The position numbers and the translations under genes are program-made. From an uncultured Alphaproteobacteria bacterium (lineage in GTDB: Bacteria; Pseudomonadota; Alphaproteobacteria; M2410): a stretch of 64,000 nt of DNA. Every line of letters begins with the position of its first letter. Within the stretch, counting starts at the first letter, position 1. Shown here piece after piece: positions 12,108 to 62,707 of this stretch. The DNA lies in the NCBI GenBank assembly GCA_965603015.1, contig CBFDBJ010000005.1, forward strand, positions 3,080 to 67,079, given 5' to 3'. The notes below the pieces were generated by a model. That model worked only from the letters and a program-made list of their open reading frames with translations. It was not told the origin of the DNA and searched no databases.

Positions 12108-12662
12108 CGTTTTTCCTTCTTCTTTTTTGTTATCAGCTGGCGTCCAGATACCATGCTGTTGTCGGGAGGTGGACAAGATAAACGTAATCCACGGTCCTTC
12201 AGTTTTATTCTGAGCTGTGGCCCTTGTGGTCCTTGATATCTGATTGAAAAGAACAGCCGCCCCGGCAAAAGAATTTTTACAAAATCAACACTGAACGCCG
12301 AATTTCCGCCGATCAATGATCACAAAATAGTGAGTGGCGCAAGGTTTGTTTTATTTGCAATCAAGTCGCAATCCAGGCTGGTGCCCGTCGGAAGGGTTTG
12401 TTAACTATTTCCCCAGACTGGAGCCTTTCCAGACATTGGCGGTTTGGATACGGTGACAGCGAGATCCGGGCCAAATCAACTTTGTGGAAATAGCCACCCC
12501 GGGTCAGCAGCCGGCTGACGGCAATGGTGTGTTGTCTCCATGATCAGAATGTCTATTCTGGACGCCAGAGCCGGTTTTCGACTGCTGCGCCAGAATCAAC
12601 TTACATGTTGCGAATCAGTGAAGGTCCCCTTCAGAACCCTGCCTTATCGAGGATCCAACCCA

Positions 12663-14090
12663 ATGTCTTCCCGTGATGACGACTTCTTTTTCAACCGCAA
12701 CGACCTCGATCAGGGCCGTATTCAGAAAATTGTTGATGATACGCTGCATGGCGGGGACGACGGAGAGCTGTATTTCGAATATTGCCAGTCCGAGGGCTTC
12801 ATGTTCGACGATGGCCGGTTGAAAAACGCCAGCTTCGATACCTCTCAAGGTTTTGGTCTGCGCAGTGTTGCGGGAGAGACCACCGGCTTTGCCCACTCCT
12901 CCGAACTCTCGGAAGCCGCTATAAAGCGCGCCGCCGATGCCGTGGTTGCGGTCAAGTCAGGGCACACCGGTGTCATGGCCGACGATCCGCGCGGCACCAA
13001 CCTCTCGCTTTATACCGATGACAATCCGGTCAACGGCGTGGATTTCGGGACCAAGGTCAAGCTGATGCAGGATATTGACGCCTATGCCAGAGCCAAGGAC
13101 CCGCGCATAAGACAGGTCTCGTGCTCGCTCACCGGCGAATGGTCTGTCGTTGCGATCATGCGCGCCGATGGTCAGATGATGCGGGACGTTCGACCCCTTG
13201 TGCGGCTCAATGTGTCGATTATGGCCGGCGTTGGAGATCGTCAAGAGTCTGGCTCATCGGGTACTGGCGGGCGCACCGGGTATGATTTCTACCTGCAGCC
13301 TGACGTGTGGCAGGGCGAGGTTGACGAGGCACTCAGGCAGGCGCTGGCCAATCTGGAGGCCGTTGATGCCCCGGCGGGCGAGATGACCGTTGTGCTCGGG
13401 CCCGGCTGGCCTGGCATTCTCCTGCACGAAGCGATCGGTCACGGCCTTGAGGGCGACGCAAACCGCAAAAAGACTTCGGCCTTTGCCGGGCTGCTCGGCG
13501 AGCGGATTGCCTCGCCAGGCGTAACGGTCATAGATGATGGCACCATTGCCGACCGGCGCGGCAGTCTCAGCATTGATGACGAGGGAACACCGTCGCAAAA
13601 GACCGTGCTGATCGAAGACGGTATTTTGAAAGGCTACATGCATGACCGGATGAATGCCCGGCTCATGGGCCACGCGCCGACAGGCAACGGTCGCCGACAG
13701 TCCTATGCCTGCCAGCCGCTGCCGCGTATGACCAACACATTGATGCTGGGCGGCAAGGACGATCCGGGTGAAATCCTGGGCAGCGTCAACTCGGTCCTTT
13801 ATTGTACATCCTTCGGCGGCGGTCAGGTCGACACGACGAATGGCAAGTTCGTGTTCTCGTGCACCGAGGCCTACAAGATCGAAAACGGCAAGCTCGGCGC
13901 GCCGGTCAAAGGCGCAACGCTCATTGGCAATGGGCCAGACTGCCTGACCCGGGTTTCCATGATCGGCAACGACATGGCTATGGATCGCGGCATCGGCACC
14001 TGCGGTAAGGGCGGCCAGAGCGTGCCGGTTGGCGTGGGTCAGCCGACGCTACGGCTCGATGGCATTACCGTTGGCGGGACGTCAACCTGA
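12663..14090 (+). CDS. tldD: Metalloprotease TldD
   Basis: TldD/PmbA family (GDDGELYFEY..., HEAIGHGLEGD). I chose ATG at 12663, preceded by a GAGGA RBS. The ORF-track start at 12540 adds a non-conserved 41 aa. Confidence 0.9.
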   Translation: MSSRDDDFFFNRNDLDQGRIQKIVDDTLHGGDDGELYFEYCQSEGFMFDDGRLKNASFDTSQGFGLRSVAGETTGFAHSSELSEAAIKRAADAVVAVKSGHTGVMADDPRGTNLSLYTDDNPVNGVDFGTKVKLMQDIDAYARAKDPRIRQVSCSLTGEWSVVAIMRADGQMMRDVRPLVRLNVSIMAGVGDRQESGSSGTGGRTGYDFYLQPDVWQGEVDEALRQALANLEAVDAPAGEMTVVLGPGWPGILLHEAIGHGLEGDANRKKTSAFAGLLGERIASPGVTVIDDGTIADRRGSLSIDDEGTPSQKTVLIEDGILKGYMHDRMNARLMGHAPTGNGRRQSYACQPLPRMTNTLMLGGKDDPGEILGSVNSVLYCTSFGGGQVDTTNGKFVFSCTEAYKIENGKLGAPVKGATLIGNGPDCLTRVSMIGNDMAMDRGIGTCGKGGQSVPVGVGQPTLRLDGITVGGTST

Positions 14091-29768: not shown

Positions 29769-29895
29769 GATTCCTGCGGATGTCCGGACATTAACAGCGG
29801 AATCGGGGGCTGCAAGTGTCAGGATTCTTTACAGTTCATCAACACTTCCACGCAGAAAATATCACAACCCCTTGAAATTAATCATATATTTTTTC

Positions 29896-29911
29896 TGGCA
29901 CAAAGATTGCT
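29896..29911 (+). promoter_or_regulatory. Sigma-54 (-24/-12) promoter TGGCACaaagaTTGCT upstream of the first PEP-CTERM gene
   Basis: Matches the TGGCAC-N5-TTGCW consensus (GG-N10-GC spacing), 48 bp upstream of the ATG at 29959. A near-identical site precedes the paralog. Confidence 0.55.
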
Positions 29912-29958
29912 TAATTGGGGCTGTAATGACGGGTTCTGATTTTTAAGGAGTAGGGATT

Positions 29959-30660
29959 ATGGGAACGAAGTTGAATAGAAAAGTTCTAGGCCTTGGCGCT
30001 GCACTGATTGGTGCTGTATTTGCCTCTGCCTCTGCCTATGCGGGCGCAGTATTGGTGATGATCGATGATCTCGGTGGCACAGTCGCCGTTGTAGATAATG
30101 GCGCAGGCGATTCGGATGCGACTGTTGGCGTTATCAATTACAACGGGGCGATCGGCGCATGGCTGGTTACAGCGGAGATCGGCGTTTCCAAGCCTATCGT
30201 TGGCTCAGCCTCGGAAGCTCAAGTGGATTTGCTCTCGGTTAACGCTTCAAGCGGCGCTGCCGGGGACCTTTATGTTCTGTTTTCCGATACGGATTTCATC
30301 AGCACGGGCGGCAACATGTGGTTTGACCTTGCCATTGGCGGGACCACTGACGGGACCGTCGAGACTGCCGGTTGCTTCAACGCCAGCAATTCAAACTGGA
30401 TGGACGAGGGCTTATGCGAAAACCTGTTTCTGCTTTCGCCAGTCCTGAACACAAATCCATTTTCATGGGCCGGTGGCACTTCGGTTGCAACATCCGGTGA
30501 CCTGTTCAGCCTTGGTATTGGCGCTTTGATTAGCCATGACAAAGGCGGGATTACGAGCTTTGACGCCAACCTGCGTGTGCCAGAGCCTGGCATGCTTGGC
30601 TTCCTCGGCTTTGGTCTCCTCGGCATGGGCCTTGCTGCCCGTCGTCGCCGGAAAGCATAA
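29959..30660 (+). CDS. Secreted PEP-CTERM sorting-domain protein (putative exosortase substrate), paralog 1
   Basis: 233 aa with signal peptide (AYAGAV), a Gly/Thr/Ser-rich domain with two Cys, and a C-terminal VPEP-GMLGFLGFGLLGMGLAA-RRRRKA (PEP motif, TM helix, basic tail). An AAGGAG RBS lies 8 nt upstream. Confidence 0.8.
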   Translation: MGTKLNRKVLGLGAALIGAVFASASAYAGAVLVMIDDLGGTVAVVDNGAGDSDATVGVINYNGAIGAWLVTAEIGVSKPIVGSASEAQVDLLSVNASSGAAGDLYVLFSDTDFISTGGNMWFDLAIGGTTDGTVETAGCFNASNSNWMDEGLCENLFLLSPVLNTNPFSWAGGTSVATSGDLFSLGIGALISHDKGGITSFDANLRVPEPGMLGFLGFGLLGMGLAARRRRKA

Positions 30661-30692
30661 GCAGACAATAGAATTCAGAACCAGAATTTGGA

Positions 30693-30724
30693 GCGGCCCG
30701 CCTTTGGCGGGCCGCTTTTTTATT
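30693..30724 (+). terminator. Rho-independent terminator
   Basis: GCGGCCCGCC-TTT-GGCGGGCCGC: a 10-bp GC stem followed by TTTTTTATT. Confidence 0.8.
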
Positions 30725-30848
30725 GGGCTCGCAAAACAGTCCCCCTGCACACCCTTCCTGTCGGGAGAGTGTCGGGATTCTTTACGGTTCAGGTCCGTAC
30801 AAATATGGTTAATTCAATAACCCATTGAAAATGCGGTGTTATTTTATC

Positions 30849-30864
30849 TGGCACGACGCTTGCT
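30849..30864 (+). promoter_or_regulatory. Sigma-54 (-24/-12) promoter TGGCACgacgcTTGCT upstream of the second PEP-CTERM gene
   Basis: Same consensus match and spacing as the site at 29896. It lies 79 bp upstream of the ATG at 30943. Confidence 0.55.
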
Positions 30865-30942
30865 AATAAGGGGTATCGCCCATGAGGGGTTTTTGGTCTT
30901 TTGTACCAGTTGTGTAACAGTCAGAGTTGAGTGGTGAGTGTA

Positions 30943-31635
30943 ATGAAAAGTAAAACAGCCCTGAGTATTGGGATTGCCCTTTTGGGTATAGTGTGTGGCT
31001 CTTCGAGTGCGTTTGCAGGCGCAATGATGGTGCTGATTGATGATCTCGGCGGCACAGTCGCTATTGTAGATAACGGTGCAGGCGATTCGGATGCGACTGT
31101 TGGTGTTATCAATTACAACGGGGCGATCGGCGCATGGCTGGTTACAGCGGAAATCGGCGTTTCCAAGCCTATCGTTGGCTCAGCCTCGGAAGCTCAAGTG
31201 GATTTGCTCTCGGTTAACGCGTCAAGTGGCGCTGCCGGAGAGCTTGTCGTTTTGTTCTCTGATACAGATTTCATCAGTACGGGCGGCAACATGTGGTTTG
31301 ATCTTGCCATTGGCGGCACAACTGATGGAACCGTTGTAACGGGTGGCTGCTACAATGCCAGCAATACGAACTGGACCGATGGTGATTCATGCGAAAACCT
31401 GTTTCTGCTTTCGTCGGATCTGACCGGAAATCCATTTTCATGGCTTGACGGTGGATTGGTTGCAACATCCGGTGACTTGTTCAGCCTTGGTATCGGGGCT
31501 GCGATTGTCCACGACAAAGGCGGCATTACCAGCTTTGATGCCAACCTGCGTGTGCCAGAGCCTGGCATGCTTGGCTTCCTCGGCTTGGGTCTCCTCGGCA
31601 TGGGCCTTGCTGCCCGTCGTCGTCAAAAGGCATAA
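30943..31635 (+). CDS. Secreted PEP-CTERM sorting-domain protein, paralog 2
   Basis: 230 aa, about 85% identical to paralog 1, with the same architecture and C-terminal VPEPGMLGFLGLGLLGMGLAARRRQKA. I chose ATG at 30943 (MKSKTAL...). An alternative GTG lies at 30931. Confidence 0.8.
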   Translation: MKSKTALSIGIALLGIVCGSSSAFAGAMMVLIDDLGGTVAIVDNGAGDSDATVGVINYNGAIGAWLVTAEIGVSKPIVGSASEAQVDLLSVNASSGAAGELVVLFSDTDFISTGGNMWFDLAIGGTTDGTVVTGGCYNASNTNWTDGDSCENLFLLSSDLTGNPFSWLDGGLVATSGDLFSLGIGAAIVHDKGGITSFDANLRVPEPGMLGFLGLGLLGMGLAARRRQKA

Positions 31636-31668
31636 GCAGACAATAGAATTCAGAACCCGAATTTGGAG

Positions 31669-31700
31669 CGGCTCGCCTTTGGCGGGCCGTTTCTTTTTTG
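31669..31700 (+). terminator. Rho-independent terminator (near-identical copy of the one at 30693)
   Basis: CGGCTCGCC-TTT-GGCGGGCCG stem followed by TTTCTTTTTTGG. Confidence 0.8.
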
Positions 31701-31825: not shown

Positions 31826-33184
31826 ATGACATCCCAGAGTGAGCTCTCCGGCAGCTCCATAGAAGACGTTGTCGCAGCCCTTGTGAAGGAAGCGATCAAG
31901 GCTGGCGCAGATGCTGCCGATGCACTCGTGGCCGAGGGGATATCCCATGCGGCCTCGTTTCGCCTTGGCAAGCTGGAGGATATCGAGCGCTCCGAGGGTC
32001 AGGACCTGGGCCTCAGGGTGATGGTTGGCCAGCGCCAGGCGGCGGTTTCATCCAGCGATCTTTCAAGAGAAGGGCTCCAGCCCCTGGCCGAGCGGGCTGT
32101 GGCCATGGCGAAACTGGCGCCGGAGGATCCTTATTGTGGGCTCGCGCCGGACGATCGCCTCGCCAAGGACTTCCCGGACCTTGATCTCATTGATCCGGTG
32201 GAGCCGGGCTCCGACCATCTCATAGAACTGGCCCGGACCGCCGAGGAGGCTGCCCTTGCCATTGAGGGTGTTACCAATTCCGGCGGTGCAGGCGCAAGCT
32301 GGGGGCGATCCGGCATCGTGCTGGCGACCTCGGCCGGATTTGTTGGCCGGTATGGCGGAACCTCGCAAGGTGTCTCTGTTTCTGTTGTCGCCGGTGAAGG
32401 TGCCGCGATGGAGCGCGACTATGACTTCACCCAGGCGCGCCATGCAGAAGACCTCGAGAGCGCGGCTAAAATCGGCCAGAGCGCCGGGGAGCGCGCCGTA
32501 AAACGGTTGAATGCTCGCAAGATGGCCAGCCAGAGCGTGCCCGTTGTTTACGACCCAAGGGTTTCCTCGGGTCTTGTCGGGCATCTGGCCGGGGCAATAT
32601 CGGGCTCCGGCATTGCCCGGGGCTCAAGCTTCCTCAAGGACCAGATGTGTAAGCAAATTTTCAAAGCGGGCCTTTGCATCATCGATGATCCACATCGCAA
32701 GCGCGGTTTCGGGTCAAAGCCGTTCGACGGCGAAGGCGTTGCCAACAAGCGCCACAATCTCATTGAAGATGGCCGCCTCACCACGTGGCTGCTCGACACC
32801 GCCACGGCCCGGCAGCTCGGGCTTGAGACCACCGGGCATGCCAGCCGGGGCATCGGCGGACCGCCCTCGCCCGGCGCGACAAATCTCTATATGGAGCCCG
32901 GCGACCTGAGCGCGGACGAACTCATCGCAGACATAAAATCGGGGCTTTATATCACCCAGCTCATCGGCTCGGGCGTCAACGGCATCACCGGCGATTACAG
33001 CCGCGGCGCGTCGGGCTTCTGGATCGAGAACGGCGAGATTGTTTTTGCGGTCAACGAGATTACCGTCGCGGGCAATCTCAAATCCATGTTTGCCGAGATG
33101 ACGCCGGCCAACGACCTTGAGTTCAAAGGCCGTGTCAACGCGCCAACCATACGCATCGATGGCATGACCATCGCCGGAACGTGA
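31826..33184 (+). CDS. pmbA: Metalloprotease PmbA/TldE
   Basis: 452 aa TldD/PmbA family protein without the HExxxH motif of TldD, which matches PmbA. Confidence 0.9.
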   Translation: MTSQSELSGSSIEDVVAALVKEAIKAGADAADALVAEGISHAASFRLGKLEDIERSEGQDLGLRVMVGQRQAAVSSSDLSREGLQPLAERAVAMAKLAPEDPYCGLAPDDRLAKDFPDLDLIDPVEPGSDHLIELARTAEEAALAIEGVTNSGGAGASWGRSGIVLATSAGFVGRYGGTSQGVSVSVVAGEGAAMERDYDFTQARHAEDLESAAKIGQSAGERAVKRLNARKMASQSVPVVYDPRVSSGLVGHLAGAISGSGIARGSSFLKDQMCKQIFKAGLCIIDDPHRKRGFGSKPFDGEGVANKRHNLIEDGRLTTWLLDTATARQLGLETTGHASRGIGGPPSPGATNLYMEPGDLSADELIADIKSGLYITQLIGSGVNGITGDYSRGASGFWIENGEIVFAVNEITVAGNLKSMFAEMTPANDLEFKGRVNAPTIRIDGMTIAGT

Positions 33185-61309: not shown

Positions 61310-62707
61310 CTAGAAACCGGACGCCTGATCCTCGTCTGGAGCATGATAGGCAATTGGTTTCCACATCGGACCGCGGTCATAGTCTCTGGACCCTTGCGCG
61401 CCGATTGCCGCTTCAACTTCTTCAAGCGGTCTTGGTTCACCGAACAGGTATCCCTGGCCGAATTTCACTTCATATTCGAGAACCTCCACGACCTGAGATT
61501 CTTGCTCGAGACGCTCGATAATCAAATCAATTCCGAACCGACCGAGCAGTTCGTGCAGATCAGATGGATGAACAAAAGAACTCCCCGGTTCTGCATTGCC
61601 ATGCAGGAAGAGGCCGCTGGCGACCTTGATATAGCGGAAGTTACGTTGGCGCAGATCCGGCAAATCCAGATCAAGATCGCCAACACGATCAAGCGAAAAC
61701 TTGAACCCAAGTTCGGCCAGACGCGACAGGTTCTTGCTCTCGTCAGGACCGCATTTGTCGATGGTCTCCCTGGCAAACTCAAAGACAAGCGTATCGGCCA
61801 GGTCCGCGTTGAAAGACATGAAATCGAGGAAATAGGGGAAGAAGTTCCTGTCCTGCAGAGAATTCAGAGAGATGTTGCACATAATGGCAATATCCGTCTT
61901 GTGTTCAGCGAGGCGTCGCACCACTTGCACGCAGCGGAAAAGAAGCAGGTTATCAATGATTGACATCAGACCTGCAGGCTCGGCGACGCGCAGGTACTGA
62001 GCGGGCAGAATGAGTTCGCCATTTTCACTGCGCAGTCTGGACAGGGCTTCATAGAAACAGATCTGGCGCTGCGGCAAGGTAACAATTGGCTGAAGGTAAA
62101 GATCAACACGGTTTTCCTCAAGCGAAGATCGAATGATACGCAGCAGCTCCTGCTCGCTCATGGAATCAAACAGGGCCGCCTTGTCACCCGGCGTCATATC
62201 ACCATTTTTTTCTGCTTCACTCAGGGCTTGTTCAATGCTGCCAATCAGACGCTTGACCGCTTGCGGATCATTGCCTGTGAGAACGTTGGTCTGGGCTTGC
62301 TCGACAACTTCCATCGCAGCCTTGCGAGCCTTCTTCTCGAGTTCGCCGGCCATTTGCCTGATCAGCGTTTCAAGCAAACGAACTTCAGAGATTACCTGAT
62401 GATTGCGTTGCTGAACTTTTTCTTCAAAAGACTCGGCCAGGTCATCGTTCTGCCCACGCATGAGATCAATTTCTTCTGAAAGCGCGAGCTTGCCGTTTTG
62501 CAGGAAGGTGAGCTCATTCTCGAACGACTGGCGTTCCTGCGCCCGATTAAACGTCTGGTGAACCTGGGCGGCCAGCAAAAACGACAAAGTGCTCGTCACG
62601 AGAGCGCCGGCCAGTTCGAATCCGAAGACCCTGAAACAGACAATCCCGATGGCTGCAGAAAGAACCACATAGGAAAGAGTGATAAGCCAATTTGTAAAAC
62701 TCGGCAT
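61310..62707 (-). CDS. EAL-domain c-di-GMP phosphodiesterase with N-terminal membrane anchor and coiled coil (no GGDEF)
   Basis: 465 aa with two N-terminal TM helices, a coiled-coil region and an EAL domain (QPIVTL...YEALSRL, DDFG-like SLDRVGD). Confidence 0.85.
   Translation of the reverse strand: MPSFTNWLITLSYVVLSAAIGIVCFRVFGFELAGALVTSTLSFLLAAQVHQTFNRAQERQSFENELTFLQNGKLALSEEIDLMRGQNDDLAESFEEKVQQRNHQVISEVRLLETLIRQMAGELEKKARKAAMEVVEQAQTNVLTGNDPQAVKRLIGSIEQALSEAEKNGDMTPGDKAALFDSMSEQELLRIIRSSLEENRVDLYLQPIVTLPQRQICFYEALSRLRSENGELILPAQYLRVAEPAGLMSIIDNLLLFRCVQVVRRLAEHKTDIAIMCNISLNSLQDRNFFPYFLDFMSFNADLADTLVFEFARETIDKCGPDESKNLSRLAELGFKFSLDRVGDLDLDLPDLRQRNFRYIKVASGLFLHGNAEPGSSFVHPSDLHELLGRFGIDLIIERLEQESQVVEVLEYEVKFGQGYLFGEPRPLEEVEAAIGAQGSRDYDRGPMWKPIAYHAPDEDQASGF

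Follow-up and report, generated by a model that had tools for sequence, protein, structure and literature searches.

In 2006, Haft, Paulsen, Ward, and Selengut described a cis-regulatory element, the PEP-CTERM box, that precedes 99 of 167 PEP-CTERM genes from Proteobacteria (BMC Biol 4:29; PMC1569441). In that description, a 17-nucleotide (nt) motif 1 with the 3' end TTTACA, sometimes present in tandem copies, is followed by a spacer of mean length 62.8 nt (standard deviation (SD) 10.6) and a 17-nt sigma-54 motif 2, and the start codon lies a mean of 71 nt (SD 38.5) past motif 2. The motif was found in Proteobacteria only, and its phylogenetic profile matched three proteins, named PrsK, PrsR, and PrsT, in 13 of 13 proteobacterial genomes, including that of the alphaproteobacterium Rhodospirillum rubrum; of these proteins, the response regulator PrsR was predicted to bind the box (PMC1569441). 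Its family, TIGR02915, is called "PEP-CTERM-box response regulator" in current NCBI naming. Here we analyze two adjacent PEP-CTERM paralogs and their upstream DNA in a 64-kb stretch of contig CBFDBJ010000005.1 (the window, meaning the whole 64,000 nt analyzed). Each paralog is very probably an independent single-gene operon under a canonical PEP-CTERM box promoter, with PrsR as the most likely activator.

Expression of the PEP-CTERM gene pepA of Zoogloea resiniphila requires RpoN and PrsK/PrsR (summarized in PMC9012009). The pepA gene of Aquincola tertiaricarbonis is RpoN1-dependent, with a mapped transcription start downstream of TGGCAC/CTGCTT and a predicted enhancer upstream (PMC9850573). 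The promoters of these two genes resemble those in the window in that each combines a PEP-CTERM gene, a TGGCAC -24 element, and a predicted enhancer upstream. They differ in that the RpoN and PrsK/PrsR dependence of pepA, which encodes the flocculation-associated PepA, and its mapped start are experimental, whereas the window is known by sequence, and in that the pepA systems belong to Betaproteobacteria, whereas the window genes lie in an alphaproteobacterial-type context. The sole direct binding evidence for the class comes from Desulfovibrio vulgaris, in which the purified PrsR ortholog DVUA0057 enriched DNA lying upstream of all five PEP-CTERM genes predicted as targets when assayed by DNA affinity purification on microarrays (DAP-chip) (PMC3333781). 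The gene for this regulator is carried on a plasmid of a deltaproteobacterium, and the binding motif assigned to it is unvalidated.

Two candidate PEP-CTERM box promoters

The original prediction gave each paralog its own sigma-54 promoter, and both elements were recovered at the expected positions. TGGCACAAAGATTGCT (29896-29911, + strand, with GG at 29897-29898 and GC at 29909-29910) precedes paralog 1 (unit 1), TGGCACGACGCTTGCT (30849-30864, + strand) precedes paralog 2 (unit 2), and both match TGGCAC-N5-TTGCW exactly (consensus form, TGGCAC-N5-TTGCT). There are three exact matches to this pattern in the window, compared with 0.10 expected from shuffles. When start sites are placed by the usual spacing after the -12 element, ∼12 nt past the GC, transcription would begin near 29922 and 30875, respectively. 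The third match, TGGCACTTCGGTTGCA (30474-30489, + strand), lies inside open reading frame (ORF) 1 and has no upstream 17-mer; its counterpart in paralog 2, CGGTGGATTGGTTGCA, does not conserve the sigma-54 match, and the site in ORF 1 is probably a chance or cryptic one.

Upstream of each sigma-54 element is a 23-bp block that occurs exactly twice in the window (0 expected), at 29816-29838 and 30769-30791. Both copies had been proposed before, with coordinates that were off by one at one end each. The accompanying distance of 73-74 bp to the -24 element could not be reproduced: the T of TGGCAC follows the end of the 23-bp block by 57 nt and that of its 17-mer core, TGTCRGGATTCTTTACR, by 62 nt, and the 17-mer and TGGCAC starts are 79 nt apart. 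The predicted activator site of unit 1, TGTCAGGATTCTTTACA (29817-29833, + strand), is an imperfect TGT-N11-ACA palindrome centered at about -97 from the predicted start, and that of unit 2, TGTCGGGATTCTTTACG (30770-30786, + strand), ends in ACG rather than ACA. A middle block, the 13-mer YAACCCNTTGAAA, is located between these sites and the sigma-54 elements at 29865-29877 and 30818-30830, as had also been proposed, and begins 31 nt before the T of TGGCAC in both units. The offset from unit 1 to unit 2 is exactly 953 bp for each of the three blocks, so their spacing is identical and the fixed geometry claimed for them is real.

When compared with the 2006 description, the window sites agree in every sequence feature and differ in nothing of kind. 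Motif 1 of unit 1 ends in TTTACA, and that of unit 2 in TTTACG, with only the last base changed. The spacer is 62 nt in both units (61 if motif 2 is taken to begin one base earlier), and the -24 GG and -12 GC of motif 2 are found in both sigma-54 elements. The sites are in non-coding DNA just upstream of PEP-CTERM genes in predicted single-gene operons, and the start codon follows motif 2 by 47 nt in unit 1 and by 78 nt in unit 2. The upstream block, for which binding by an enhancer-binding protein had been proposed, holds motif 1 of the 2006 paper at the spacing given there, and the putative control regions of both paralogs are canonical PEP-CTERM box promoters, an architecture already known since 2006.

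The similarity of the two control regions is concentrated in the blocks. In ungapped comparison, the units are identical at 15 of 17 positions of the 17-mer core, 11 of 13 of the middle block, and 13 of 16 of the sigma-54 element; the DNA between the blocks is identical at only 7 of 26 and 9 of 18 positions (27-50%), and in the stretch of 20 nt that precedes the 17-mer only 6 positions agree. Because the inter-block DNA is this diverged, the blocks are selectively conserved islands and not mere duplicated sequence. The units are nonetheless paralogous, the identity of their gene bodies reaching 98% in some stretches, and unit 1 contains a weak sigma-70-like match, ATCACA-18-TATATT (9/12), at 29861-29890, so one could regard the shared blocks as functionless remnants of a tandem duplication, with transcription supplied by a sigma-70 promoter or by read-through from ubiD. 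We consider this scarcely credible: the blocks, at 85-100% identity, are far more alike than the DNA between them, and, as described below, they recur in a syntenic locus and, with quantized spacing, before unrelated PEP-CTERM genes of more than 100 genomes. The sigma-70-like match, the sole one found, was rejected as a promoter, as it is at shuffle expectation and absent from unit 2. Read-through from ubiD is countered by the position of unit 2 behind the strong terminator of unit 1 (30690-30718, + strand), which has a 13-bp stem and then a T-run. Unit 2 has a strong intrinsic terminator of its own at 31665-31693 (+ strand), and because each ORF is followed by its own terminator, the paralogs are predicted to be two separate single-gene transcription units.

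Recurrence of the box and organization of its spacer

Reference genomes, one per species, were scanned with the query TGTCRGGATTCTTTACR-N45-75-TGGCA. The exact 17-mer followed by TGGCA was found at at least 119 loci, and all site counts given below are among the matches listed. Most of these loci are in Alpha-, Beta-, Gamma-, and Deltaproteobacteria. The full element TGGCAY-N5-NTGC is present in 103 of 120 sites, even though the query required TGGCA only. Downstream genes were judged by ORF selection and a Pfam scan, and a Pfam PEP-CTERM domain was found in 69 of the 92 evaluable downstream ORFs. Because the exact 17-mer recurs in this way across genomes, the window 17-mer is predicted to be the widely shared consensus operator of the regulon, and the fact that it precedes PEP-CTERM genes, together with a sigma-54 element, in over 100 other genomes further supports its reading as an activator site. 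Variant sites, including TGTAAAGATTTTTTACA and TGTAAAAGTTCTTTACA, are found near other sigma-54 promoters in the same loci with the same spacing classes; they show the dyad symmetry TGTMR...YKACA that is expected for a dimer.

Homologs of the window protein, taken together with their flanking DNA, show the same organization. In a syntenic ortholog locus (L001), UbiD is 91% and PmbA 84% identical to the window proteins and the PEP-CTERM protein, encoded by a single gene copy, is only 45% identical; its promoter retains the 17-mer at 17 of 17 positions, along with a related middle block and TGGCATGAAGGTTGCT. The gene order ubiD - PEP-CTERM - pmbA - DUF4170 - msbA is conserved there. Three further loci (L003, L004, and L010) encode proteins that are 31-39% identical in unrelated contexts and carry TGTC-N7-TTTACA plus GG-N10-GC. 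We also observed the exact box with the complete sigma-54 element, along with a PEP-CTERM ORF, on contigs of metagenome-assembled genomes (MAGs) labelled Nitrospirota, Acidobacteriota, Syntrophomonas, and Deltaproteobacteria (L101, L129, L063, L127, and L065); these occurrences could reflect a wider distribution of the box or mis-binned contigs.

Spacing and the middle block were analyzed in 96 dereplicated sites. The spacers of these sites are solely 50-54 nt (mean 52.1), 61-66 nt (mean 63.2), or 71-75 nt (mean 73.3), with none at 45-49, 55-60, or 67-70 nt, and the 62-nt spacer in the window belongs to the main class (61-66 nt). At a period of 10.5 nt the vector strength of the spacers is 0.75, and the highest value reached among 10,000 uniform nulls is 0.34. 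These classes are the pattern of helical phasing that is expected if an activator must face the polymerase.

When the spacers are anchored on the -24 element, a recurrent string, YAANNNNTTGATW, is revealed that is the reverse complement of the consensus for integration host factor (IHF), WATCAANNNNTTR. A perfect match to this consensus is present in 13 of 96 spacers (0.24 expected), and a match with at most one mismatch in 42 of 96, compared with 4.3 in shuffles, which is an ∼10-fold enrichment. In 35 of the 96 promoters, the element has the same orientation as in the window and begins 30-33 nt ahead of the T of TGGCA; the opposite orientation is much rarer (15 matches versus 42). The original prediction had allowed for an architectural-protein site between the activator site and the promoter, and the middle blocks of the window agree with this, as each matches the IHF consensus with one mismatch. 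In unit 1, the IHF-like site (29865-29877, - strand, about -57 to -45) reads CAACCCCTTGAAA and on the minus strand TTTCAAGGGGTTG, and in unit 2 (30818-30830, - strand) these are TAACCCATTGAAA and TTTCAATGGGTTA, respectively. We infer that IHF would bind the middle block.

Alternatively, the middle block might offer the activator a second contact, bind a nucleoid protein other than IHF, or be an A/T-rich tract with intrinsic curvature, possibilities that together we regard as rather unlikely but worth serious consideration. Both copies in the window read TTGAAA in place of the TTGATW core, only 13 of the 96 spacers have a perfect match and 54 have none at up to one mismatch, and a match to the IHF consensus predicts binding only weakly. 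These points are set against the enrichment over shuffles, the fixed position relative to TGGCA, and the orientation bias, none of which favors such a non-IHF element. IHF is moreover known to act between enhancer and promoter at classical sigma-54 promoters, namely those activated by NifA at nifH (upstream activator sequence TGT-N10-ACA), by XylR at Pu, and by NtrC at glnHp2. The window sites resemble these IHF-assisted promoters in having a palindromic TGT...ACA ∼100 bp upstream, an IHF bend (only predicted in the window) between this site and a -24/-12 promoter, and a dependence on the face of the helix, to which the spacing classes point. They differ in the spacing of the half-sites (N11 in the window, N10 in the classical promoters), in having a single activator site where the classical promoters have tandem ones, and in the regulon and the family of the activator, which in the window would be PrsR/AtoC-like.

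Returning to IHF as the candidate ligand of the middle block, we tentatively suggest, as a generalization that could well fail, that PEP-CTERM box promoters, both copies in the window included, are tripartite and not bipartite, with an orientation-fixed IHF-type bend site that begins 30-33 nt before the -24 T and a PrsR site placed only at whole helical turns from this bend site, which would yield spacers of ∼52, 63, or 73 nt and none between these classes. The 2006 paper mentions neither an IHF-like element in the spacer, as seen in the window, nor helical-turn spacing classes, as seen in the wider sample, and no report of a fixed IHF-type site or a helical-turn rule for the PEP-CTERM box was found in the searchable literature. 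Both are modest refinements, of a kind expected for sigma-54 promoters.

Tandem arrangement of motif 1 was also considered. There are no tandem second copies in the window, and tandem copies were rejected as a feature of the class, as 12 were found in the sample and 9 in a control region. The TGTC(C/G)GGA strings at 29783 and 30759 were dropped as candidate half-sites, because second copies were not above the control region.

The proposed activation mechanism

Based on these elements, a dimer of an NtrC/AtoC-type enhancer-binding response regulator, most likely PrsR phosphorylated by PrsK, would bind TGTCRGGATTCTTTACR, an imperfect palindrome of 17 bp centered near -97. The IHF-consensus-like element, centered at about -51, would supply a bend that loops this activator to RNA polymerase, and the activator ATPase would then open the closed complex of sigma-54 holoenzyme on TGGCAC-N5-TTGCT. 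Transcription would begin ∼12 nt past the GC and stop at each gene's own terminator. For this account, the elements, their conservation, their recurrence, and their quantized spacing come from the analysis described here, and dependence on RpoN, PrsK, and PrsR as well as in vitro binding come from the literature on other species. The source genome is expected to encode PrsK/PrsR and RpoN.

Several observations weigh against this account. No enhancer-binding protein was found in the 64-kb window, and the GAFTGA and Walker motifs typical of such activators are absent from it in any frame; rpoN, exosortase, and exopolysaccharide (EPS) genes were not found among the 36 window proteins scanned with Pfam, and none of PrsK, PrsR, PrsT, and exosortase was found within the window. 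The G at position 17 of the unit 2 site (its ACG end) is present in only 12 of 120 sites, and this 17-mer may be a weaker site. The TTGAAA of both IHF-like copies departs from the consensus core, and the searchable literature holds nothing relevant that links PEP-CTERM with integration host factor. Finally, a regulator gene adjacent to a box, such as the one described next, is no proof of which protein binds that box.

The identity of the activator was examined in loci in which regulators and boxes are found together, using the NCBIfam models for PrsR (TIGR02915), PrsK (TIGR02916), and PrsT (TIGR02917). In L010, a regulator gene lies 1.1 kb from the PEP-CTERM gene, and its product passes the PrsR model with 537 bits (cutoff 502.6). 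In L016, on the Rhodospirillales MAG contig JAJFIG010000109.1 (2006-6565), the exact 17-mer, together with its sigma-54 promoter and PEP-CTERM gene, is directly downstream of genes for a histidine kinase and a sigma-54 activator. This pair was rejected as an alphaproteobacterial PrsK/PrsR, as it scores below the cutoffs for both PrsK (81 versus 300 bits) and PrsR (397.8 versus 502.6 bits); its members may be a divergent PrsK and PrsR or merely unrelated neighbors.

The exact box beside a kinase and regulator that fail these cutoffs, along with the lack of an enhancer-binding regulator in the window, would fit a lineage in which the sigma-54 promoters are real and an enhancer-binding protein other than canonical PrsR recognizes the 17-mer, for example a PrsR-like paralog with another sensor input. 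We judge this improbable, because the 17-mer of the window is identical to a widely conserved consensus whose profile matched PrsK, PrsR, and PrsT in all 13 of the proteobacterial genomes compared, R. rubrum among them (PMC1569441), and because a true PrsR equivalog is found beside a homolog of the window protein in L010. PrsR thus remains the most likely activator, and the interpretation of the original prediction, a sigma-54 promoter with an upstream enhancer site before each paralog, is supported; the feature is an ordinary instance of a published architecture.

The PEP-CTERM paralogs and their setting

Paralog 1 (29959-30660, + strand) encodes a 233-amino-acid protein with a signal peptide and a VPEP...RRRRKA tail, and it is preceded by an AAGGAG ribosome-binding site at 29945-29950. 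Paralog 2 (30943-31635, + strand) encodes 230 amino acids if the ATG at 30943 is taken as its start, for which a GTG at 30931 is an alternative. Both proteins pass the Pfam PEP-CTERM model PF07589 (22.1 and 23.3 bits, cutoff 20.7) and TIGR02595 (18.8 and 19.8, cutoff 16). Their scores with the PepA model NF033554 (33.5 and 36.7 bits) are below its cutoff of 80, with only the C-terminal half aligned, and by this measure the window paralogs are not PepA equivalogs. The public gene call for paralog 2 (P0002) is 202 amino acids long and begins at the internal Met of MVLIDD, without a signal peptide. Translation from the ATG at 30943 gives MKSKTALSIGIALLGIVCGSSSAFAGA, parallel to paralog 1, and the deposited start is probably wrong.

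The identity between the paralogs is a mosaic, with 53% in the signal-peptide region, 92-98% in central stretches, and 73-83% in other parts. The 3' untranslated regions and terminators are identical at 63 of 70 positions, and the promoters are near random outside the three blocks. This pattern suggests gene conversion of the gene body following an older duplication.

A leader string, GGGTTCTGAT, is present at 29931-29940 in unit 1, with the counterpart GAGTTCTGATC in L001 (about 757-767). It is degenerate in unit 2, whose leader is ∼30 nt longer, and it is not conserved in the 103-site profile; this string is probably lineage-specific. A search of the leaders against Rfam gave no hit near the gathering score, and only the terminator hairpin was returned (E = 0.16-0.96). 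The search of the intergenic DNA for hairpins and inverted repeats found just one trivial 9-nt pair, in unit 1 only.

The paralog pair is flanked by ubiD and pmbA in a housekeeping neighborhood (cox, nap, ubiA, msbA, and others). Two genes for PmbA/TldD-family metallopeptidases are present in the window (12540-14090 and 31826-33184, both + strand), one of them directly downstream of the PEP-CTERM pair. The sole signaling gene found in this otherwise housekeeping window encodes an EAL-domain protein, a predicted cyclic di-GMP phosphodiesterase (61310-62707, - strand).

Taken together, these results assign two unnamed surface proteins to the PEP-CTERM/exosortase regulon and correct the start of paralog 2, which in the public call lacks its signal peptide. 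The paralogs are predicted to be expressed only when a PrsK-type sensor fires, a response that in other bacteria is tied to the formation of flocs and biofilm matrix. In general terms the locus adds little, as its type of control region was predicted in 2006 and has since been validated in part; what is new is only the statistical evidence, from ∼100 genomes among the matches listed, for a fixed IHF-like site and helical-turn spacing classes. If the tripartite organization of the box is correct, the PEP-CTERM regulon would provide a clean set of natural cases in which to test the face-of-helix rules of enhancer-dependent transcription.

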